From Narcine bancroftii (Eukaryota), in assembly GCF_036971445.1 (NCBI RefSeq), contig NC_091473.1, positions 187,550,001 to 187,614,000 on the forward strand: a DNA stretch of 64,000 nt, read 5' to 3'. Below are positions 6,895-64,000 of the stretch, piece by piece (the stretch's first letter is position 1; each line of letters opens with the position of its first letter). The position numbers were made by a program, and so were the translations under genes. The notes below the pieces were generated by a model, which saw nothing but the letters and a program-made list of their open reading frames with translations, did not search any database and was not told the DNA's origin.

Positions 6895-8200
6895 TGTAGG
6901 CTACTAGCATCAAACCACATGAGGCAGAGTGAAGATAAAACACTAGTTTTAATAGATTGGTATACAGCTAGGCTTTGAAGCCTTGGCCTTGCCTCTGTAC
7001 AAACCTAGGCCAGAATGAGGGGGAAGGGATTCCCCCGGGCTTATATACTCACCTGGTGACCTAGTGGTGTAATGACATCATGCATGACATACCACCACAT
7101 TCACCCCCCCTTAAAAAATTGTGACTGACCCTTCCCCCCCCCCCCCCCCCACATCTCTTTGCACCAGTTCAGTATGTAGTGGACTTTTTGACGTGGTTTC
7201 CTCTTCCTTCGGGGGGGCTGGGGGTCTTGGCCCTGGGCAAGGGTGTGGTGTGTGGATGCAGAGCTTTCTGCCGTGGGGCTGTGTTCGTCTGACGCTCTTC
7301 ATGCTGCTCCATGGGGGTCCGCACCCCTCCCACGTCGACCATGGTTCCTTCCTACTGATCCCCCGGAGCCTGTGGTACTCCTGCGTCGTCTGCCGTCCCA
7401 TCTGCTGATCTGTAGGGGTCTGTAGTTCTTCTGCGCTGCCCACGTCTCCCTGGTGGCCACCAAGTCTTTCCGTCCATCCTTGAATGTGACGTAGGGGTAG
7501 TGAGGGTACACGTGCCTCACTTCCATGGGCTCTACCAGTGGGTCCGTCCTGTGGCATCTACAATGCTTGCGGAGGAGGGCCGGTCCCGGTGACATCAGCC
7601 ATCCAGGCAGCAAGGTGCCTGTCGTGGTTTTCCTTAGGAAAGAAAAGATACTGTCATGTGGTGTCACGTTAGTGGTGGTACACAATAAAGAGCATATGGA
7701 GTGCAGAACCTCTGGTAACACGTCTTGCCACCTTGCTACTGTAGGTACTTTGCTTTGAGAGTTAGCGGAACCGTCTTCCAGATGGTGGCATTCTCCCTTT
7801 CTACCTGCTCGTTCCCCCGAGGGTTATAACGCGTAGTGCAACTGGTCGCAATGCCTCTATCCAAGAGGTACTGTTGGACCTCGGTGCTCATGAAGGCAGC
7901 ACCCCTATCCTTGTGTATATAGCTAGGGTACTCACACAAACTGAATTTAGATTGCAGGCACTTTATTACTGTGGCTGCGGTGACATTGGGACACAGGATA
8001 GCAAAGGGGAACTGAAAGGCGTGGTAGATTTTATTAAGGGGACGCTGTCTGGCAGGTGGAACTGCGGTTTACACTCCGCACAGATGGGGCAACCCCTGCT
8101 TACCGTCCTTACCTCCTCCACTGAGAACGGGAGGTTTTGGGCCCTGACAAAGTGGAAGAGCTTCAGGACTCCCGGGTGGCCCACCTCATCCCCGGCACCC
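6895..8200 (-). mobile_element. Gypsy-like LTR retrotransposon remnant: integrase, PPT and 3' LTR
   Basis: GHPGVLKLFHFVRAQNLPFS...CPICAECKP (zinc-binding), IHKDRGAAFMS...YNPRGNEQVERENATIWK (rve core). PPT AAGGGGGGGTGAA abuts a TG...CA LTR at 7099-6895. Confidence 0.88.
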
Positions 8201-47015: not shown

Positions 47016-47576
47016 CTATAGTGTCCCCTCCTCCAGCAGTTTATTGAGTCCCTCACAGATCTTCTTCAGGTGGGGTCCATAGGGGTCCCCGGGGCTGTAG
47101 AGCTTCGTCAGGAGGTCAGGGTTGGCGAAGTGATTGAAGACGTGCCTGATGCGGCCATGGGACTTGGGCGTGAGGTGCTTTGCCACCAGTTTCAGCAGGA
47201 GGTCCCTGCACTCTGTCAGCAGGTCCACCATAATGCTGTACTCAAAGGTGAAGGCCACCTCATGGAAGCTGATCATGGTCATGGCGCCTCGCCGCAGCTT
47301 CCTCCGAAAGTCCTCAGCTAGGTCCAGCTCGTCCTGGCTGAACTGCTGGTGCCGGTAAAGCACTCCGATCTTCACCGCCACCTTCACCAGGTCCTTCAGC
47401 ACCTTCTGCGACTCGGCCTTGTTGCCTGTGAACTCCTTGGACACCCGGTGGAGCTCATCAAGTATCTCACCACTGGTGTCATCAATGAAGAGGTTCGCCA
47501 AGGTCTTCGACGCCATCCTGCTGAGGACCTTCTTCTGGGTGCGGAGAGCCAGGTCCTTGGAATTAAACTGGTCCAT
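47016..47576 (-). CDS. TNFAIP8L2: TNF-alpha-induced protein 8-like 2 (TIPE2), 186 aa, single coding exon
   Basis: MDQFNSKDLALRTQKKVLSRMA...LFIDDTSGEILDELHRVSKE...HLTPKSHGRIRHVFNHF...LKKICEGLNKLLEEGTL*. TNFAIP8 family; CAG acceptor 6 nt before the ATG. The L2 paralogue is assigned by synteny with LYSMD1/SCNM1/TMOD4. Confidence 0.92.
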   Translation of the reverse strand: MDQFNSKDLALRTQKKVLSRMASKTLANLFIDDTSGEILDELHRVSKEFTGNKAESQKVLKDLVKVAVKIGVLYRHQQFSQDELDLAEDFRRKLRRGAMTMISFHEVAFTFEYSIMVDLLTECRDLLLKLVAKHLTPKSHGRIRHVFNHFANPDLLTKLYSPGDPYGPHLKKICEGLNKLLEEGTL

Positions 47577-47599: not shown

Positions 47600-48305
47600 G
47601 AGGAGGGGGGAGAAAGTAAAACCTGGCATCACCTCTGTTGTGGGGGGAAGGAAAACCCGGCATTGGGTCCGGAGTTGGGGGAGGGATAAGGGGGAATAAA
47701 ATAAAACCCAGCATCAGGTCCGGAGTGGGAAGATGTGGGAGGGTGAGGGGGAATAAAGTAAAACCCGGCATTGGATATGGAGTGGGGTGATATGGGGGTT
47801 AAGAGGGTGATAAAAGTAAAACCCGGCATCGGGACCAGAGTGGGGAGATGTGGGGGTGAGGGCGAATAAAGTAAAACCTAGCATCAAGGTCAGGAGTGGG
47901 GAGATTTTGGGGTAGGGGACAGGAAGAAAAACCCAGCATCGGCTCTGGAGTAGGGAAATGTGGGGGTGGGGGGGAAGGAAGTAAAACCTGGCATAGGATC
48001 CGGAGTGAGGAGATGTGAGGGGGAATAAAATAAAACCCGGGATCGGGTCCGGAGATGTGGGGGGGGGGTGAGGGGGAATAAAGTAAAACCCGGCATCAAG
48101 GTCAGGAGTGGGGAGATGTGGGGGTGGGGGGAGAAGGGAGTAAAACCCGGCATTAGATCTGGAGTAGGGAGATGTGGGGGTGAGGGGGAGAAGGGAGTAA
48201 AACCCGGCATTAGATCTGGAGTAGGGAGATGTGGGGGTGAGGGGGGAAAACCGAGCATCGGCTCTGGAGTGGGGGTGGGAGGAGGAAGTAAAACCCGGCA
48301 TCAGC
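47600..48305. repeat. Degenerate 55-60-bp tandem repeat (AAAGTAAAACCCGGCATC...GGAGTGGGGAGATGTGGGGG)
   Basis: About 12 copies directly upstream of the TNFAIP8L2 coding-exon acceptor. Confidence 0.88.
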
Positions 48306-48869: not shown

Positions 48870-49362
48870 CATCTATATTGATGATGTCACACAAGGATCC
48901 CACACCAATCACATTCTCACTGATGATCTCACAGCAAAAATTCCAGCCAATCACATTCTCACTGATGATTTCACAGTAAAAATTCCAGCCAATTACTTTC
49001 ACACTGATGATGTCACTGCAAGGATCCCAGCCAATCACATTCACAATGATGATGTCACAGCAAGGATCTCAGCCAATCACTCAAACACCAATGATGTCAC
49101 AGTAAGGTTCCTGGCCAATTACATCCACACCAATGATGTCACACTAAAGATTCCGGCCAATCACATGAACACCAATGATGTCACAGTAAGTATCCCGGCA
49201 ATAACATTCAAATTGATGATGTCACAGCAAGGTTCCCACCCAATCACATCCACATTAATGATGTCACAGCAAGGTTCCCACCCAATCACATCCACATCAA
49301 TGATGTTACAGCAAGATTCCTGGCCAATCACATCCACATTGATGATGTTACAGCAAGGATTC
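48870..49362. repeat. 42-bp tandem repeat (TGATGATGTCACAGCAAGGATCCCAGCCAATCACATTCACAC)
   Basis: TGATGAT starts at 48879, 48921, 48963, 49005, 49047 and onward; about 12 copies. Confidence 0.92.
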
Positions 49363-52814: not shown

Positions 52815-55800
52815 TTTTCTTTTTTTTAAATTTTTTATTTTTCACACCATAAATCACATTAACCATGATACACACTTTTTCCTTTTCACACATATACAGT
52901 GCCCATTTTCTCCCCCCCCCCCCCCACCTCCCTCCTCCCATCCCACCCTTCCTACATCCCCCCTCCCGTCCATTTAAGGTACAAAATCTAGGATACATTA
53001 AACCAGTCAGACAATGTTGTCATTCAATAAAAATACACCAGAAATTCCACTGAGTCCATTCTTTTCATTTCCTTTTCCTTCCGTTAACTTAGGTAGTGAT
53101 TGTCCCCGGTAGGTTTTCGTAAGGCTTCCATATTTGTTCGAATATTTCAATATTATTTCTTAAACTATATGTTATTTTTTCTAATGGAATACATTTATTC
53201 ATTTCTATATACCATTGTTGTATTTTCAAATTATCTTCCAATTTCCAGGTTGACATAATACATTTTTTTGCTACGGCTAGAGCTATCTTAACAAATCTTT
53301 TTTGTGCATCCTCCAAATCAATTCCAAATTCTTTGTTTTTTATGTTACTTAGGAGAAAGATCTCTGGATTCTTTGGTATATTGTTTTCTGTTATTTTATT
53401 TAATATCTGATTGAGATCTTCCCAAAATTTTTCTACTTTCTCACATGTCCAGATTGCATGAATTGTTGTTCCCATTTCTTTTTTACATCGAAAACATCTA
53501 TCAGATACTGTTGGGTCCCATTTATTTAACTTTTGAGGTGTAATGTATAGCCTGTGTATCCAGTTATATTGTATCATACGTAACCTCGTATTTATTGTAT
53601 TTCTCATCGTTCCAGAGCATAACTTCTCCCATGTTTCCTTTTTTATCTTTATATTTAAATCTTGTTCCCATTTTTGTTTAGTTTTACCATTTGTTTCCTC
53701 ATTCTCCTTTTCTTGCAGTTTAATATACATATTTGTTATAAATCTTTTGATTATCATTGTATCTGTAATCACATATTCAAAGTTACTTCCATCCAGCAAA
53801 CTCAAACTGCTTCCTAATTTATCCTTCAAGTAGGATCTCAATTGGTAATATGCCAGCGCTGTATCTTGAGTTATATTGTATTTATCTTTCATTTGTTCAA
53901 AGGATAATAATCTATTTCCTGAAAAACAATTTTCTATTCTTTTAATCCCTTTTTTCTCCCATTCTCTAAAGGAAAGGTTATCTATTGTAAAAGGGAGTAA
54001 CTTGTTTTGCGTCAATATTAGTTTTGGTAATTGATAATTTGTTTTATTTCTTTCTACATGAATCTTCTTCCAAATATTGAGTAGATGATGTAATACTGGA
54101 GAACTTCTATGTTGTACCAATTTTTCATCCCATTTATATAATATGTGTTCAGGTATCTTTTCCCCTATTTTATCTAATTCTAATCTAGTCCAATCTGGCT
54201 TTTCCCTTGTTTGATAAAAATCTGATAGGTATCTTAATTGTGCGGCTCTATAATAATTTTTAAAGTTTGGCAGTTGTAAGCCTCCTTGTTTATACCATTC
54301 TGTTAATTTATCTAGTGCTATCCTCGGTTTCCCCCCTTTCCATAAAAATTTCCTTATTATTTTCTTTAACTCCTTGAAGAATTTCTCTGTCAAGTGTATT
54401 GGCAATGCCTGAAATAGGTATAATATCCTTGGAAAAATGTTCATTTTAATGCAGTTTATCCTTCCTATTAGTGTTAGTGGTAAATCTTTCCAATGCTCTA
54501 AATCGTCCTGTAATTTTTTCATTAGTGGATAATAATTGAGTTTATATAGTTGGCCGAGATTTTTATTTATTTGTACACCTAGGTATCTTATTGCTTGCAT
54601 TTGCCATCTAAATGGTGATTCCTTCTTAAATTTTGAGAAATCCGCATTATTCATAGGCATTGCTTCACTTTTATTTACGTTGATCTTGTAACCCGACGCT
54701 TCTCCATATTCCTTCAATTTCTTATATAATTCTTTTATTGATAGTTCTGGTTCTGTTAAGTATACTATAACATCATCCGCAAATAAACTGATTTTATATT
54801 CCTTGTCTTTTATTTTTATCCCTTTTATATTATTTTCTGTTCTTATCTATTCTGCTAGTGGTTCTATAGCTAACGCAAACAATAAAGGTGATAGTGGGCA
54901 TCCCTGCCGTGTTGACCTGCTTTAAGTTAAATTGCTTTGATACATGTCCATTTACTGTCACTTTCGCTAATGGTCCCTTATATAATGCTTTAATCCAATT
55001 AATATACTTCTCCGGTAAACTAAATTTTTGCAATACTTTGAACAAATAATTCCATTCTACTCTGTCAAAGGCCTTCTCTGCGTCTAAAGCAACTGCTACT
55101 GTTGGTGCTTTATTCCCTTCTACTGCATGAATTAAGTTAATAAATTTACAAATATTGTCTGTTGTGCGTCTTTTTTTGATAAATCCAGTTTGGTCTAGAT
55201 TTACCATTTTCGGTACATACTTTGCTAATCTGCTTGCTAATAGTTTAGCTATTATCTTATAATCTGTGTTAAGTAAAGATATTGGTCTATATGACGCTGG
55301 TGTGAGTGGATCTTTCCCTTGCTTTAGAATTACTGTAATTATTGCTGTTTTACATGAATCTGGTAAGCTTTGTGTTTTATCAATCTGGTTGATTACTTCC
55401 AGGAGGGGCGGAATTAATAAGTCTTTAAATGTTTTATAGAATTCTATTGGGAATTCATCCTCTCCTGGTGTCTTATTATTTGGTAATTTTTTTATTATCT
55501 CTTGTATTTCTACTATTCCAAATGACTCTGTTAATTTATTTTGTTCCTCTATTTGTAGTTTTGGTAGTTCAATTTTAGTTAGAAATTCATCTATTTTCCC
55601 TTCTTTCCCTTCGTTTTCAGTTCGGTATAATTGTTCATAGAATTCTCTAAAGTTTTCCTTAATTTCTTTTGGATTATATGTAATTTGTTTGTCTTTTTTC
55701 CTTGATGCCAATACCATTTTCTTAGCTTGTTCTGTCTTAAGCTGCCATGCTAGGATTTTGTGCGTTTTTTCACCTAGTTCATAATATTTCTGTTTTGTCT

Positions 55801-55908
55801 TCATTATATTCTTCTCCACCTTATATGTTTGTAGTGTTTCATATTTTATTTTTTTATCTGCCAATTCTCTTCTTTTAGTTGTATCTTCCTTCATTGCTAA
55901 TTCTTTTT
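52815..55908 (-). mobile_element. Young 5'-truncated L1-clade LINE (ORF2 RT and C-terminus, 3'UTR, A-rich tail)
   Basis: YRPISLLNTDYKIIAK, DAEKAFDRVEW, FADD and C-terminal CFRC...HAIWTC motifs. One frameshift (about 54922) and one stop (about 54848). TSD CTTGATTCCTTTTTC at 52800-52814 and 55909-55923. Confidence 0.95.
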
Positions 55909-57025
55909 CTTGATTCCTTTTTCAATGCATAATCCTCATTTGAAAGAATGGGACTTAAAGGGTTTGGCATTAATTAAGATTGCTTTGATGGTGGTTTATT
56001 TCTTTCATTTGATAGGGAGAAGTTTGGGATATCACAAAATACATTGTTTGCATTTTATCAAGTACGTGATTTTTTAATGAATAAAATTGGTCGAGAAATG
56101 ATATTACCAACACAATTTAAGTTTGAAATATTGGTTATGGACAAGGGAAAGAAAGGGTTTGTTTCTGAAATTTAATCGATGTTACAGTCAAAAATGAAGA
56201 AGGTAGGTGTGTGGCGAGTAAGAGATAAATGGGAACAGCAGTTAGCTACGTTTATTCCTGAGGAGGAATGGTCTGACTTACGTTTATATAGTGTTACAAA
56301 ATTAGTTAATGTGCGTTATAGTTTAGTTAATTATAATTTTTTACATCAGTTATATATAACTCCTGAAATGTTAAAAAGGTATGGTTTTAAAGATTCTGCC
56401 TTGTGTTTTAGGTGTGAGATCAGATAGGTACTTTTGTACATTCTGTGTGGAATTGTCCAAAGGTTAAACCTTTTTGGAAAAAGATTATTAAATTTTTGCG
56501 AGATTTATTTCAAATAGATTTATATGTGGATCCATGGCTGTGTTTACTTGGATATATGAATCCATTAACAGTATGTTTGGATAAATATTGGATTGCATTT
56601 ATTCGATTGAGTTTGGCAGTAGCTAGGAAGTGTATAGCGGTAACTTGGAAAAATGATGTAGAGTTGAGCATACAGAGGAGGCATAATGATATTCAATCAT
56701 GCTTACTTTTAGAGAAAATTACATATAATTTGAGAAATAGTTATTCCTTTTTTGAAAAAAATGTTGACCCCCATATTTGAAATGTATGAATTTGAATGTG
56801 TACATTTTTCTTTTAATATTTTTGTTTGAATTGTTGAAATGATGTATTGTAATCTAACCCACTTTATTTGTTTGTTTCAATATTTTTTTGTGTGTATATT
56901 AAACTTCGGGGGGGGGGGAGAGGGGATAGTAAGGGATGGGATTGTGGGTTGGTGAGTGGGGGTTATGGGGAGTAATTTAGAAGGGTTTTCTATGTTGTAA
57001 ATTTTTAAATAAACTTTAAAAAAAA
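55909..57025 (+). mobile_element. Older degenerate L1-clade LINE 3' part (host of the nested L1; left stub at about 52770-52814)
   Basis: VNYNFLHQLYITPEMLK...CFRCE, WNCPKVKPFW, LAVARKCIAVTWK, LLEKITYNLRN; AATAAA plus A-run at about 57008-57025. Confidence 0.88.
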
Positions 57026-57059: not shown

Positions 57060-57715
57060 TATAGAGACAGGGAGGGGTGTAGGGGGTTACAGAGATGGGG
57101 AGGGGAGTAGTAGGGGTTTGTGGGTGTATATGGGGCATGTGAGTGGGATGTTGGGGTTGTGGGGGTATATGGGGGGTGTGAGGGATTTGTTGGGGTATAT
57201 GGGGACTGTGAGGGAGATGTGGGAGTATATGGGGTGAGGGGATGTGGGGTATATGGGGGATGTGAGGGTATATAGGGGTGTGTGAAGGGGATGTGGGGCA
57301 GTTGTTGGGGGGATGTGGGGGTATATGAGGGGGTGTGAGGGGTATGTGGGGGGTTGTGGGGGTATATGGGTGTGTGTGAGGGGGATCTGGGAGTATATGG
57401 GATGTGTGAGGGGATGTGGGGGTATATGGGGGTGTGTGAGGGGGATGTGAGGATATATGGGGGGTGTGAGGGGATGTGGGGGTATGTGGGGGGTATTGTT
57501 AGGGGTATATAGGGTGATGTGGGCTGTGTGTGAGGAGCATGTGGGGGTATATAGGGGGCTGTGAGGGAGATGTAGGGGTATATGGGGTGTGTGAAGGGAT
57601 GTGGGGGAAAATGGTGGGGTGTGAGGGAGATGTGGGGGGGTTGCGGGGGTACATGGGGGTGGGAGAAGGGGATGTGTGAGGAGGATGTGGGGGCATGTAG
57701 TGGGGGGGGTAGATG
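57060..57715. repeat. Degenerate G-rich tandem repeat (GGGGGTATATGGGGG...GTGAGGGGATGT)
   Basis: Visible directly, downstream of the cyclase stop codon. Confidence 0.85.
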
Positions 57716-57796
57716 TAACAGGCCTGGGAGCAGGTCCAAGCCGCCTATCCCTTCCCGCACGCTGCGTTGCCACAGCAACCAGAGCCTGAGGCTATG

Positions 57797-58049
57797 TCAC
57801 ACCAGCACACAGGTGACGCTTCCGAGTCGGACGCGGGGGGCATGCGACGTGGGGGCGGCTCGTTCTCCCGGCTGGGCGGGCGGCACTGTTGCCGTGGCGA
57901 TGCCAGGTGGGGGCAGGGCCTGCTTGACCCTCCGGCCGTGGCTCCTCCTCCTCAGCTCCCGGAAATCCTGCGACCCCTCGTAGGAGCTGCCGCTGGCTAG
58001 GCAGTCTTCCCCACTGTCTGTGTCCCTGGGGGAGTCCCTCGGGCTCCGG
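57797..58049 (-). CDS. Guanylate-cyclase-like gene, terminal exon ending in CaaX (CVLV*)
   Basis: CAG acceptor at 58050-58052 after a long pyrimidine tract; phase 2 joins the previous exon; 253 nt open frame RSPRDSPRDTDSGEDCLASGSSYEGSQDFRELRRR...RLGSVTCVLV*. Confidence 0.7.
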
Positions 58050-59936
58050 CTGGTTGGAGGTGGGGTGGGGAAGGGAGATGTGAGGGAAGGGGAGGGTGGA
58101 GGGAAAGGTAGGGGGAGGGAAGGGGAGGGTGGAGGAGGGAGAGGTAGGGGAGGGGGTGTGAGGAAGGGGAGGGGTTGTGAGGGAAGGGGAGGGTAGAGGG
58201 AAGTGGAGTGGTGGAGGGGAATGGGTTACAGGGGATTGTGGGATGGGTTGGAAGGGGAAGAAAGGGGAGGCAGGAGAGGAGGGGTGAAGAAGAGGGGTAG
58301 AGAGGGATGGGTGAGAGGGAGGGGTTGACGGGTTGTGGGAGGGGTTGGAAAGGGGAGGCAGGAGGAGGGGTGAGGAAGAGGGGAGTGAGTGAGGGGTAGG
58401 GGAGAGAGACAGGGAGGAAGAGGGGAGAGAGTGAGGGTAGGTGGAGAGATGGAAGGGGAGGAAGAGGGGAGGGAATAAAGAGAGGGGTAGGGGAGAGAGG
58501 GGTGAGGGGGTAAAAGAGGGGTAGTGGAGAAAGTGAGGCGTAGGGAGGGAGAGGGAGCAGGGAGGAAAAGGAGGAGTGGCAGAGAGGGGGTAGAGGAGGA
58601 CGGGGGAGTAATGGTGGTTGAAGGGGAGAAAGAGGAAAGGGGAGGGAGAATCATCAATGCAGGTCCTGCCCATCCCCCTCCTTCCCCTCGTCCCCCTTCC
58701 CCCTCAACCTCCTCCCCCTCAACCCCCTCCCCCTCAACCCCCTCCCCCTCAACCCCCTCCCCCTCAACCCCCTCCCCCTCATCCCCCTCAACCCCTCCCC
58801 CCTTGTCCCCCTCAACTCCCTCCCCCTCATTTACTTCACCCTCCTCCCCCTCATTCACTTCATCCCCTCCCCCTCATTCACTTCACTCCCCTCTCTTTGA
58901 CCCCTTCCAAACCTTCCCCCCTCTTGCCCCTCTCCTTGACCTTCTTGTCCCCTATCTCTTATCTCCTCCCTGTTGTCCCCTTCGCCTCACCCTGTTCCCA
59001 TCCCCTCCCCTGGGGAGGAGAATTATCAAACCATCCCCAGACCATAGCCACCCACCCCTAAAACATCGAGGTGAAGATGGGGAGAGAGGTGAGGAGAGAA
59101 AGAAAGAGAGAATAAAGGGAGGGAAGAAGTTGAGAGGGTAGATTGATGAGAAGAGATAGAATGGAGAGGGGGGGCAGGGAAAGAGTGGGAGAATGGAATG
59201 GGGAAGGATCGTGGAGGCAGGGAAGTGGGAGAATGGAAATAGAGGGGAGGGAGAGGCAAAAAGGAGAGAGAGAGTGGAGGGGAGAGGAGGGAGGGAGAGG
59301 AGTGGGGAAAGAGAGAGGGGACTGAGGATCGACAGAAAGGTGGAGAGAGTGGAGAGGAGAGCGGAGAGGGAGGAGGTGGGGAGGGAGAGGGTGTTGAGGG
59401 TGGAGGGAAGGATAGAGGGACAGGATGGAGGGAGATGGAGAGAAGGTGTGAGGGAGAGGGAAGAGATGGGGAGGGGGATGGTGTTGGAGTGGGGAAGGAC
59501 TGAGAGGAAAGAGAAAAGGTGTGAGAGAGTGGAGGGAGGGAGAGGGGAAGGACAGAGAGCGGACTGAGAGGATAGAGAGAGGGGTGAAGGAGAGAGGGTG
59601 CAAAAGAGAATGGAGGGAGGATGGAGAGGGGGATAGAAAGGTATGGAAGAAAGGGAGGAGGGGGATGTAGGTTGGAGGGAGTGGGGACAGCGAGTCCGGT
59701 AGAGTGAGGGATAGAGATTTGGGGGTGTGGAGAGAGAGAGTTGGAGGGATAAGGAGGAAGGGGAGAATGAGAGAGTTCTCGTCCTGGTGAGCAGGGTTGG
59801 GGACAGGATTGGATTAAATCTTGGTGGGGGGGGGGAGTGGGTCAGTGGGCAGTCTTTTGGGAGAGAATTGAGGAGGAATCATCCCAATGAGTGGAGGGAC
59901 CTAATAGCCTAGCCAGTTTTCCTGGGGACACCTTAC

Positions 59937-60040
59937 CTGGACATACTGCCTTCCTTCAGCTCACTGCTGTACTCCATGGAACCCTTAAAGCCTGGGCTCC
60001 TCTTCCCTTTCAACCAGTATGTCTTCATGTATCCTTTGCC
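59937..60040 (-). CDS. Guanylate-cyclase-like gene, penultimate exon (end of class III cyclase catalytic domain)
   Basis: Pyrimidine tract plus AAG acceptor, GKGYMKTYWLKGKRSPGFKGSMEYSSELKEGSMS(S), GTAAGG donor. (K)GKGxMxTYWL closes guanylate cyclase catalytic domains. The upstream exons are outside the window. Confidence 0.8.
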
Positions 60041-60272
60041 CTTGGGGGAGAGAGGAGTAAACATTGAGACGCGGTGATTGAAGGCCGGAGAAACTCAGCA
60101 GGTCGCACAGTGAGAGCCTGCAGTTTCCTAACATCGACCCTATTTAGGAATGTCAAGGAACCATCATTTCGGGCTTGAGCCCTTCACCGAGGGATGACAG
60201 TAGGGAGAGGGATTTATCCATTCAGCTACATTTTCCTCATTCCTTGATGAAGGGCTTAAATGTTGGTCTTTA

Positions 60273-60766
60273 GGCCCCTTTTACGCTTGCAATCGTAAAA
60301 TCGGCTGTCCGATGTCCTGGGATAAGGATGGCGTTTTCTCGCATCTTCATGCTTGACCACAACCCTGTTACTTCCCATGCAGGTACCAGCCTCTCAACAC
60401 ATTCTACGGGGAGAATCCCGTGTAACTGCATCAATCCCCCAGTTTGAAAGATTGGCCACTATTTACAGAAAGCCGTGAACATCGCCAGGGACTCAGTGAC
60501 ATTTATACCCTCATTTTAATTTTCCTTCACGTTACCTGCACTCATGCAAAAACGTGGATCATTTCAGTCCCGCAATCACCCCATTCCACACTTGCCCGAT
60601 TGCAACACCGGCCTCTGCAGATGCCAGGGATTGTACTAGGGGCTGAGGGCGTCAATCCCCGGCATGAGATGACGTCACCTGACGCCACCGTTGAGAGGAT
60701 TTTCCTTTCACACCAGACCCTTTTTAGCCCAAATAGCCGTTAATTCCTGCAAGTGTGAATGGGGCT
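60273..60766. mobile_element. PIF/Harbinger-like MITE
   Basis: TIRs GGCCCCTTTTACGCTTGCA / TGCAAGTGTGAATGGGGCT with TTA on both flanks. Confidence 0.75.
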
Positions 60767-61734
60767 TTAATCTTTGCTACACAGAGTACACGGTTTGACC
60801 TGGTGAGATTCTCCCACGTTGCATTTTTACCCTTGGGAGAAACTCTGGAGAACTCCCGTTGCGGATTGGTTGGAAAGTGAGTCAGAGGAGATCCGAGGTC
60901 AGAGGCACATGCCCTGCAGAACGGGGAGGAAGGTCGCTTCGAGTGCAGTCTAGCGAGGCAACCCTTGCATATTACAGATGTTTGAAAGGGAGAGAGAGGG
61001 GCTGTTGGGATGGAGAAAAGGCAGTGAAATTCCAGGGCACAAAAAAACGACTACCCTTGAATCTGGCAGGGCGTGATCTCGCGCTCGGGAATCTTCTTCC
61101 CGACTGGAGGGGTGAAGAGTGGCTGAGACTTTTCCTTCTGTATATTATCGTGTCATAGTTGTCCCTCTCTTTGCCCAAAGATTGTGTGTTTGCTGTATGA
61201 TCTGTGTAAAAGTCGACCCTCCTATTTTTGGCCTTGACTGCCTGCCCATCCGAGGTCCCGACACCCTAGCTGCCCGCCCATCTGAGCTCCCGACGCCCCG
61301 GCTGTGGACTCTTACCTGGGCAGCGACCACCCACCCATTTGAGCTTCCGATGCCTCAAGCAACGTAGGTACTTACTGGGGTCAAATGTATGACCCGTGCA
61401 CATCGACCCCTCCCCAAAAAAATTTGACCTGAAAAATGGTCCAAAGAATTCGACGATTACATGAGTATGTCACCACAGAAAGGATGTGGATGCTGTAGAG
61501 AGGGGGCAGAGGAGATTCACAAGGACGCTACCTGGATTGGAGACCATGACCTATGAGGATAGGTGAGTGAACTTGTCCTTTTCTCCTTGGAGCGATGGAG
61601 GATGGGGGGGGGTGACCTCAAGAGGCATTGATTGTGTTGGACGGTCAGAGGCTTTTCCACCCGGAGCTGAAGTGGCCAACATGAGGGGGGATCGTTTTAA
61701 GGGGCTTGGGAGTAAGTACAGGAGTGGTTAATTA

Positions 61735-62220
61735 TAATTTTTTGCATCAGTTGTATCTGACCCTTGAGAAATTGAAAAAATATGGATTTAGTAATTCAGA
61801 AGTGTGTTTTAGATGTGGATTATGTGTAGAAACATTTTTACCCTCAGTTTGGCTTTGTGATAAGGTTCAACCATTTTGACAAAAACATTAGAGAATTTCT
61901 TCAAAAATTGTTTAAATTAAATTTTTATTAGATCCAAAAATTTTTGGGTTGTACTTAGTGATTTGAGGTGAGACAAGTTTCAGACAGCTTTACTTCATCT
62001 AGCATTGGCTGTAGCACGTCAATCTGTGGCGATTTCATGGAAAGATGAGCCTGAGGTAAATGTAACTCGTTGGCAATAATGAGTTGAGATCTTGTATGGA
62101 AAAAATACCCTTGTGGGGTTTGCTGAGATGGGGTGGATTAGTTGTAGTTTTTCATTTTTATATTATGGACTTTGTATAGGTTTTTTCTTGAAAATTTTAA
62201 ATAAAGTTTGAGAAAAAAAG
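61735..62220 (+). mobile_element. Degenerate L1-clade 3' fragment
   Basis: Similar to 56330-57025 (YNFLHQLYLT..., CFRCG, LALAVAR..., AATAAA tail). Confidence 0.7.
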
Positions 62221-62449
62221 GGGGGATGGTCTTCACACAGAGAGGGATGGGGGCAGGGACTGCGTTGCCAGCAACAGTGGTGGAGGCTGGGACGACAGGG
62301 TCTTTGTTAGGCAGGGACATGGGACTGAGAAAAATGGAAGGGTACCCAGTGGGGAGATTCTCGACCAGTTGTTAGATTGCGAAACTCAAAAGTCTGCAGA
62401 TGCTGTAGTTGGAGTAAAATCAAAGGTGCTGATGGAACCCGACTGGAGG

Positions 62450-62700
62450 GATGAGTCAAAGGAGAAGTTATTGAGGGTGATGACATTCTGCCAGCTGGAG
62501 GAGGGTGGTGGGGCTGGTTGGGTCTGTTGTCCAGAAAGAAACGAAGGGCTTTGAGGCCTTTGGTATGGGGGATGGAGATGGACAGGGATCGGACGTCCGT
62601 GGTGAAGGCCAAGTTCAGGGAGCTGGGAGTTGTGTGAGTGATGGAGGGCGTGTGAAGTATTCGCGGATGTAGGTGGGGAGGGACTGAACTGGGGGGGGTG
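62450..62700 (-). mobile_element. Penelope-like RT fragment
   Basis: FTTDVRSLSISIPHTKGLKALRFFLDNRPNQ and ITLNNFSFDSS motifs; pLTR-like sequence at about 62700-62795. Confidence 0.75.
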
Positions 62701-63063
62701 CACCTTGAGGAAGGGCTCAGGCTTGAAACTCCATCATTACCGCCTAAGGATGAAGCGAGACCCGCTGAGTTCCTCGGGCGTTTCTGTGTGTTTTGAACTT
62801 GTCAGAGTTGGGTCGGCACAGCACTGTGGGCCGAAGGGCCTGTCCCTCGCTGTGTTAGTCAACGAGGGGTCTGGGGCAGTGCCCAGAGGTGCTGGAGAAA
62901 CACAGTGCCAGCGACCCGGTTGGGGGTGGGGTGGGGGTCCGAATCCCATGCTGTCTGTAAGGCGTTTGTGCACTGTCCCCATGATTGCGTGGGTTGCACC
63001 AGTTTTCCCCCCACCCTTACCAGGGTTGGGTGGTAGTTGCAGGTCAAATGGGCTCGTGCTGTG

Positions 63064-63306
63064 TTTGGTGATACACTACTAGCCGACTGCAGGGGCAACC
63101 TGTCTACCTGCACTGGAGGAGAAGGCAACACCTGGTCAGCTGTCAATCACCCTCCTGGATATAAACAAGATCTGGCCCCTTGAGGTCAGTCTCAGAGCTT
63201 GCACAGCCACTCTCACACACAATCTCTGTGGGATTTTATACAGAATAAAGCTTGTTGAACAGCTTTTATGTTTTGTGTCTGCTTTTCTGCTTGACAGCGC
63301 ATCACA
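63064..63306 (+). mobile_element. Solo LTR related to the 45354-45649 copy
   Basis: Shares ACTGCAGGGGCAACCT...TACCTGCA and the terminal ACAGCGCA(T/C)CACA; internal TATAAA and AATAAA. Confidence 0.65.
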
Positions 63307-64000
63307 CTGCGAAAGGGTCCGTTACCATTCTGTGCGTTGAAGTGAAAAGGCAGTCGATGTTTCAGCCCTGAGTCTTCAAAAGTGAGGTGGGGGGGAGGGA
63401 TTGGTGTAAGCCAGGGGTGGCCAAACCCCGGCTCACCAGCCGCCTGCGGCTCTTTGACCAGTAACGTGGGGCTCACGGAAAGAGATGGGCTGAGACAGGA
63501 ACCGTACGGGCCGATGCTCACCCTGGTAGTGTTAGTGGGCCTGGCTTGTGTGTGTGTGTACGCATGTAAAAAGCCGACCCCCTAAATTTCACCCTAGAAA
63601 TTGGTCCAAAGTGCAAAGTGCTTTTAGGATATTGAAGCTAATGCAAATTAGTTGTTTAAAAATTACATACATGAATAAATATTAATATGTGTGTACATTT
63701 CTTAGATAAAAATTTTGCAACAAAATGTGCATGCTAAAGTAAAAACATTTTATATTTTTTCTTATTGAATGTGGCTCCTACGTTAAACAAGTTTGGATCC
63801 CCCCCCACCACCCCCCACTCCGCCCCAGTACAACAAATGTTGGACGGTGAGGAGAGAGTGGGTTGAAATCTACAAAGCCTTCTCCCCATCCCCCTGCCAA
63901 CAAGAGGGGTGTGGAGAGGGAGAGAGGTCTAGGGATAAGATTCTTGAATCACCCAGTTCACAGACTGAGCTTGGGAGAAGGGGACCGGGGTAGGGCTCTC

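Follow-up and report, generated by a model that had tools for sequence, protein, structure and literature searches.

A Gyc88E-clade soluble guanylate cyclase of Narcine bancroftii and its fish paralogue: a candidate one-site, CaaX-tailed heterodimer

Introduction

Two short minus-strand exons in the genome of Narcine bancroftii encode the end of a guanylate cyclase catalytic domain followed by a tail that closes on a CaaX box, and the locus raises the question of what kind of cyclase this is and how a chain of this kind might work. CaaX boxes are carried by rat sGC beta2 and by the C. elegans proteins GCY-35/36. The earlier note on this DNA had proposed a prenylated, membrane-tethered cyclase of a Gyc88E/beta2-like type, kept in this lineage and possibly forming a gas-sensing module. 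Here, the window means the whole stretch of 64,000 nucleotides that was analysed.

Terminal exons and gene neighbourhood

The penultimate coding exon, at 59937..60040 (minus strand, 104 nt), encodes the last part of the cyclase domain (GKGYMKTYWL) together with the start of the tail, and matches residues 639-672 of the RefSeq protein P0002 at 100%. The coding part of the terminal exon, at 57797..58049 (minus strand, 253 nt), encodes a low-complexity Ser/Pro/Arg tail, the CaaX box and a TGA stop codon. Read on the minus strand, the first of these exons has a pyrimidine tract and AG upstream and GTAAG downstream, the second has AG directly upstream, and joined they make 119 codons, that is, 118 residues and the TGA. 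The low-complexity last intron that separates them (58050..59936, minus strand, 1887 nt, GT..AG, phase 2) is also the only solution with canonical ends, as a scan of splice pairs returned five shifted pairs that yield the identical protein and GT..AG only at 59937^58049. The product equals the last 118 residues of P0001 and P0002 of N. bancroftii (XP_069796341.1 and its longer isoform XP_069796340.1), which RefSeq names 'soluble guanylate cyclase 88E-like'; P0001 was also the single hit when longer proteins were searched with the frame of the first exon. The pair of phase-compatible exons put forward in the earlier note is thus borne out by canonical splice sites and by the match to a RefSeq protein. 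The predicted junction was likewise recovered, as contigs from 4/4 public runs omit exactly 58050-59936, though the runs all belong to one study, have a guessed RNA status and are possibly data behind the gene model, and so are not independent replicates. The contig of one run continues past 60044 and encodes IIEERGKIFV, the preceding part of P0002. We regard it as confirmed that the two exons terminate a spliced gene.

The motif GKGYMKTYWLKGK, the RRR-containing basic patch and the terminal CVLV* are all as previously described from the sequence. The patch, RELRRRSHGRRVK, lies at 57923..57961 (minus strand), some 45-55 residues ahead of the C-terminus, and shows loose conservation in other fishes (sharks, bony fishes); the CaaX box CVLV, read from the two-exon translation, occupies 57800..57811 (minus strand). 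The start of the 3' UTR covers 57650..57796 (minus strand), and three contigs go on beneath the compared stretch for some 585 letters or more. At the other end, the preceding intron takes up 60041..64000 (minus strand), with residues 1-638 encoded beyond the right end of the window and known from the RefSeq model and from relatives. A tblastn search within the window found no additional exons of the cyclase gene, and Pfam returned no match with either of the two exons singly.

The neighbouring gene was previously called TNFAIP8L2. Its coding exon, at 47016..47576 (minus strand) and not part of the cyclase gene, does belong to the TNFAIP8 family, with TIPE3 best by score (238 bits) ahead of TNFAIP8 (222) and the shorter chain TIPE2 (213); the L2 name comes not from the score but from the gene order in human and from the adjacent tropomodulin, SCNM1 and LysM exons. 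Exons of tropomodulin (plus strand), an SCNM1 zinc finger (minus), a LysM protein (plus) and the TNFAIP8-family protein (minus) form a block at 11.4-47.8 kb of the window, which matches the human order TMOD4-SCNM1-LYSMD1-TNFAIP8L2. Between this block and the cyclase, at 53089-55921 (minus strand), two overlapping long frames match RVT_1 and zf-RVT and are, judged by these matches, a frameshifted copy of a LINE-type retrotransposon. An integrase core (rve) fragment at 7736-8068 (minus strand), slightly below the Pfam cut-off, is likely the remnant of an LTR retrotransposon. GC-skewed minisatellites occupy 47683-48269 (periods 57/110), 48879-49362 (42) and 57158-57638 (30/31), the last of these just below the cyclase stop codon and inside or adjoining the 3' UTR.

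Domain composition and clade

Pfam finds HNOB (2-163), HNOBA (204-459) and Guanylate_cyc (470-650) in P0002 and nothing else. No kinase-homology domain was found in this protein by Pfam, and no transmembrane segment, the top 19-residue hydropathy being 1.49. An H-NOX domain, an HNOBA domain and a class III cyclase, with neither transmembrane segment nor kinase-homology domain, make up the composition of a soluble cyclase, and the earlier proposal of an atypical soluble enzyme as opposed to an NPR/GUCY2 receptor holds on these grounds. In a quick tree of 57 rows, P0002 groups with Drosophila Gyc88E and with proteins of molluscs, hemichordates and amphioxus, and the branch that splits this Gyc88E clade from the beta1, beta2 and alpha-like rows has an SH-aLRT support of 100, the beta1-like and alpha-like rows being assigned by motif only. 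As far as its sequence tells, the window gene is a Gyc88E-clade atypical soluble guanylate cyclase. Only the first half of the label 'Gyc88E/beta2-like' survives, as the tree puts P0002 outside vertebrate beta2 and across the branch with support 100.

Two paralogues in jawed fishes

Jawed fishes have two Gyc88E paralogues, A, which is the window gene, and B, which is about 50% identical to A. Both are present in sharks, rays, chimaera, bichir relatives, gar, teleosts and coelacanth, and at least 35 species are named with both among the matches listed. The view that the gene was kept in this lineage therefore gives way to a range that runs from chimaera to teleosts and coelacanth. In N. bancroftii itself the A and B genes lie on different contigs. 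Neither A nor B of a tetrapod, lungfish or cyclostome was found among the matches listed, from which Danio rerio is absent too; this range comes from two lists of 120 matches (about 410-1300 residues) and from listed cluster members, the large clusters (339, 100, 61 and 56 members) being represented by 15 members each. New representatives of 50% clusters proved A- or B-like in five of 147 cases, all of them teleost.

Both chains are strongly conserved. Between shark and teleost, A is 98% identical in the H-NOX domain and 99% in the cyclase domain, and B 97% and 93%, as against 52% and 71% between A and B. In a more careful tree of 25 proteins chosen from the relatives collected, the amphioxus and fish proteins form one clade (support 99/98), in which the two amphioxus genes cluster together (99/97) and the sister grouping of A and B reaches just 68/45. 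Orthology of B with the amphioxus copy that has an Arg-to-Tyr change was rejected (p-AU 0.025).

Some individual records deserve mention. Two B records of N. bancroftii, P0102 and P0398, are on the same contig with distant accessions and are identical save for a 45-residue insert, which makes them either a recent duplicate or an assembly duplication. P0173 of Sarotherodon galilaeus, an A-type copy that evolves fast, has damage in its second Asp motif, an intact CaaX box and the source label CDKAL1; it is probably a decaying duplicate that has been mis-annotated.

The C-terminal CaaX motif

Conservation of the CaaX box across shark, ray and fish orthologues, which the earlier note had named as a check, was found: a cysteine stands at position -4 in 57/59 A proteins with a complete tail. 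It is also there in 32/38 B proteins and in 28/37 invertebrate proteins that have a tail. The rest of the tail is poorly conserved, with just 15-46% identity to P0002 (8 comparisons), and poor in cysteine, which makes up 0.4% of the remaining tail residues of A proteins; the retention of this one cysteine against such a background is thus not a matter of chance. These alignments speak for a motif that is under selection and ancestral to the clade, and since Drosophila, molluscs and amphioxus carry it as well, the CaaX box cannot be counted as a novelty of the fish gene. The final residue of the motif is Leu in 49/59 A proteins and Ser in 19/32 B proteins, and the last-residue rule for CaaX boxes would put a geranylgeranyl group on A and often a farnesyl group on teleost B. 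The tails of A and B are likely to be prenylated and membrane-anchoring.

Haem pockets and gas input

The H-NOX site aligned with Ile145 of beta1 has been linked to O2 binding (PMC1435932, excerpt), and a Tyr at this position marks the O2-sensing clade (PMC1435932 and bioRxiv 10.1101/2022.02.14.480389, excerpts). This distal position is Tyr in 38/38 B proteins and in 39/39 invertebrate proteins, and Phe in 68/69 A proteins (Phe143). A otherwise has the elements of a haem pocket, with the proximal His104 in 66/66 proteins and a YxS/TxR motif in nearly all (Tyr133 and Ser135 in 68/69, Arg137 in 69/70), and B too keeps the proximal His and YxS/TxR. Because the distal Tyr is lost in A, this chain is probably not the one that binds O2. 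Judged by these residues, any O2 binding is more likely to sit on B, or on A by way of a relocated tyrosine. In the fly enzymes, activity rises when O2 is absent and is inhibited when it is present (PMC2990333, excerpt). By analogy, gas might enter through the haem of B with its distal Tyr and give an O2-inhibited, hypoxia-stimulated synthesis of cGMP, a suggestion to which we give about even chances; the pocket of A (Phe143, Tyr5) would then have another ligand preference.

The input may, however, not be O2 at all, with the A pocket holding no haem or another ligand and the Tyr of B insufficient for a stable O2 complex, and we hold this possible if somewhat on the unlikely side. Position 5 of the H-NOX domain touches the haem (PMC1435932, excerpt) and is Tyr in 63/63 A proteins as opposed to Leu or Ile in 74/74 others, and the tyrosine rule is itself contested, as a Tyr mutant of full-length sGC failed to bind O2 (PMC9592903, excerpt), which suggests that a distal Tyr is insufficient there. 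Against such a reading, A retains His104 and YxS/TxR, in an H-NOX domain that is almost unchanged from shark to teleost. This alternative bears on nothing but the input and leaves room for the A/B heterodimer to which we now turn.

Catalytic half-sites and the proposed A/B enzyme

A class III site takes Asp486, Asp530 and Arg574 (alpha numbering) from a first chain and Glu473, Cys541, Asn548, Arg552 and Lys593 (beta numbering) from a second (PMC6005667, excerpt). We mapped these sites by alignment to human alpha1/beta1, with roles as given in Table 1 and section 9 of that source (excerpt), and counted residues in 155 proteins (72 A, 44 B and 39 invertebrate), excluding rows gapped at a site and also the K638/K640 columns, which were misaligned for B. 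A further sample consisted of 85 additional cluster members.

In B, Gly, His and Ala replace Cys541, Asn548 and Arg552 of human beta1 in 43/43 proteins, and the same pattern recurs in 27/27 further B cluster members. B keeps the Asp, Asp and Arg of the metal half with normal flanks, as well as the Glu and Lys of the beta half, the latter being Lys618, the equivalent of beta1 Lys593 in the alignments. Cya2 is active with a Glu-Gly pair (PMC6005667, excerpt), so the change from Cys to Gly is not in itself enough to kill B. B is strongly constrained yet unable to complete a site alone, and would thus need a partner.

A presents the intact beta half, with Cys in 68/68 proteins, Asn in 61/62 and Arg in 62/63, and with the guanine-specifying pair Glu521 and Cys591 in 68/68. 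Every covered A sequence has the canonical catalytic set of eight residues in full, among them both metal Asp and Arg570, and because of these three the metal half of A is not formally dead. It is altered around these residues: Lys484 and Asn486 are found in 71/71 A proteins and Arg524 in 68/68, and the changed residues recur in 51/51 further A cluster members. Arg524 replaces a near-invariant Gly beside the metal Asp and is found in 0/142 other cyclases. Forty-seven of those 142 keep the full catalytic set, of which 46 have Gly524 and 43 have Thr at position 486, where Asn never occurs in this set. Asn does stand there in human beta1, a chain that makes no use of its metal half. Lys484 was rejected as proof of a dead A site, since two of the 47 full-set cyclases have it; fly Gyc88E has Thr there. 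Judged from these alignments, the case for complementary half-sites is clear for B and suggestive for A. The invertebrate relatives mostly retain both half-sites (Asn598 in 35/39, Arg602 in 29/39 and Gly524 in 39/39).

Amphioxus offers two variants of its own. Among the isoforms P0072-P0093, apparently of one gene, the beta half-site segment is intact in some (35-type RWCLFGDTVNTASR) and degenerate in P0083, P0086, P0091 and P0093, where the Cys, Asn and Arg are gone, and the chains end either with or without a CaaX box; possibly, alternative exons let a single gene make both an active chain and one with a dead half. In the second amphioxus gene (P0074, P0077, P0081, P0084, P0085 and P0094) the catalytic Arg is replaced by Tyr and the GKG loop contains an insertion, which by its residues represents an independent decay of the half-site also lost in fish B.

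On this evidence we think it probable that A is one half of a one-site A/B heterodimer with a predicted CaaX-prenylated membrane tether. A would supply the beta-type residues Glu521, Cys591, Asn598, Arg602 and Lys638 (P0002 numbering), and B the alpha-type Asp461, Asp505 and Arg550 with intact GFT and IGD (P0102 numbering). In the second, pseudo-symmetric site, Arg524 and Asn486 of A would lie opposite Gly571, His578 and Ala582 of B, leaving it dead, and the prenylated CaaX tail would keep the dimer at the membrane. A joint model of A and B over the dimerisation and cyclase region scored 0.69 against 0.00 for the best of three controls, with runs agreeing in at least 68% of contacts and a partner pLDDT of at least 76; as similar complexes (alpha1/beta1 sGC) are already solved, this pass is a likeness and not proof of pairing, and such a model cannot distinguish family members, the comparison being one of A:B with controls. 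The mark was reached by 51/78 solved and 2/108 mismatched microbial pairs, and in eukaryotes by 71/105 solved and 2/126 mismatched pairs.

We consider it unlikely that A is instead an active homodimer like fly Gyc88E, with B, in the manner of Gyc89Da/b, an optional partner or modulator that brings in an O2-type haem. The full canonical set in A and the variability of position 484 among full-set cyclases would agree with such an enzyme, and so would the fly precedent, in which Gyc88E homodimers are active (PMC1435932, excerpt) and the enzymes also act as heterodimers with Gyc-89Da/b (PMC9075734, excerpt); what weighs against it is that Lys484, Asn486 and Arg524 are all fixed and all within one half-site, that neither Arg524 nor, in full-set cyclases, Asn486 has any parallel in the counts given above, and that Asn486 is the state of a chain, human beta1, in which this half is unused.

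It is very unlikely that A serves as an extra beta-type subunit to alpha1 or alpha2 in a membrane-anchored, NO-responsive cyclase and leaves B to another partner. The intact beta half and the non-polar distal residue, like that of NO-selective beta1, could be read in this way, but A falls in the Gyc88E clade, distant from alpha and beta1, has Ile77 and no Cys at the position of beta1 Cys78, and has its taxon range in common with B, unlike the alpha subunits, which persist in tetrapods. A receptor guanylate cyclase of the usual kind (NPR1/GUCY2), or an exon joined in error, has a negligible probability. The GKGxMxTYWL motif, which NPR1 also has, and the location of NPR1 on the same human chromosome arm might have pointed that way, but the reading is refuted by the domains of the full protein (HNOB and HNOBA present, kinase-homology and transmembrane segments absent) and by spliced contigs with the junction in 4/4 runs.

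Relation to known cyclases

If the A/B heterodimer is real, this near-invariant pair would add another sGC system to those of vertebrates, with a range that takes in sharks, rays, chimaera, ray-finned fishes and coelacanth. It would also be a clean instance of the passage from a homodimer to a one-site heterodimer following duplication, a shift that the alpha/beta, insect and amphioxus lines each appear to have made on their own. It would also follow that a single fish 'Gyc88E-like' gene expressed by itself might show zero activity. To our knowledge, molecular O2 sensing in fish is unsettled, and A and B provide a concrete candidate that can be knocked out. The fullest picture, a direct O2 sensor of jawed fishes in the form of a doubly prenylated A/B cyclase with two haem pockets and a split ancestral Gyc88E site, lost landward and a candidate sensor of O2 cells in gill or brain, is tentative, and as a whole we would call it rather doubtful.

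The automatic 'soluble guanylate cyclase 88E-like' annotations in fish genomes are these genes, under a name that lumps A with B. One such gene is reported as upregulated in pikeperch brain, under a heading for genes with no known activity in fish (PMC12673963, excerpt). In the excerpted text of a 2006 survey, the O2-sensing basal clade consists of insect and nematode proteins only, with the vertebrate ones in alpha1, alpha2, beta1 and beta2 (PMC1435932). Open-licence literature, with subscription work on insect sGC and on medaka cyclases outside this scope, yielded no study of the function, half-sites or pairing of A and B; an earlier mention of the fish genes is possible, for instance in the accession list of PMC1435932 or in supplement trees.

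Among known systems, vertebrate beta2 (GUCY1B2) resembles A in its soluble architecture and CaaX ending (CNVL in crocodile, CALL in deer), but differs in its identity of only about 36-41%, its retention in tetrapods and its two intact half-sites. The alpha1/beta1 enzyme (GUCY1A1/GUCY1B1) is a one-site heterodimer in which the catalytic residues are divided as predicted for fish A and B, and human alpha1 is likewise without the Asn and Arg (Thr/Lys), like fish B. Unlike alpha1/beta1, the fish pair belongs to a separate clade, has the haem His with its motif and a CaaX tail on both chains, and places an O2-type Tyr on the alpha-like chain, B. Drosophila Gyc88E and Manduca MsGC-beta3 share the clade and domains of fish A and its LHEY and YxS/TxR motifs; the long tail of Gyc88E also ends in a CaaX box (CRIL in D. 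tropicalis). In Gyc88E the distal Tyr and IGD are retained and the homodimer is active (PMC1435932, excerpt), where fish A has Phe143, Tyr5, Lys484, Asn486 and Arg524. Gyc88E and Gyc89Da,b, the heterodimeric O2 sensors of the fly, resemble A and B in combining a complete-looking chain with one that lacks the Asn/Arg half, and an unnamed protein of the insect branch, P0181, which we infer to be Gyc89D-like, is without the Asn and Arg lost also in B. The two pairs arose by independent duplications, with fish B inside the chordate clade (99/98), and differ in that the fish pair has fixed changes on both chains and usually a CaaX ending on both. What is new here is the A/B pair, with its apparently complementary half-sites and swapped haem-pocket tyrosines, the CaaX motif itself being ordinary for the clade.
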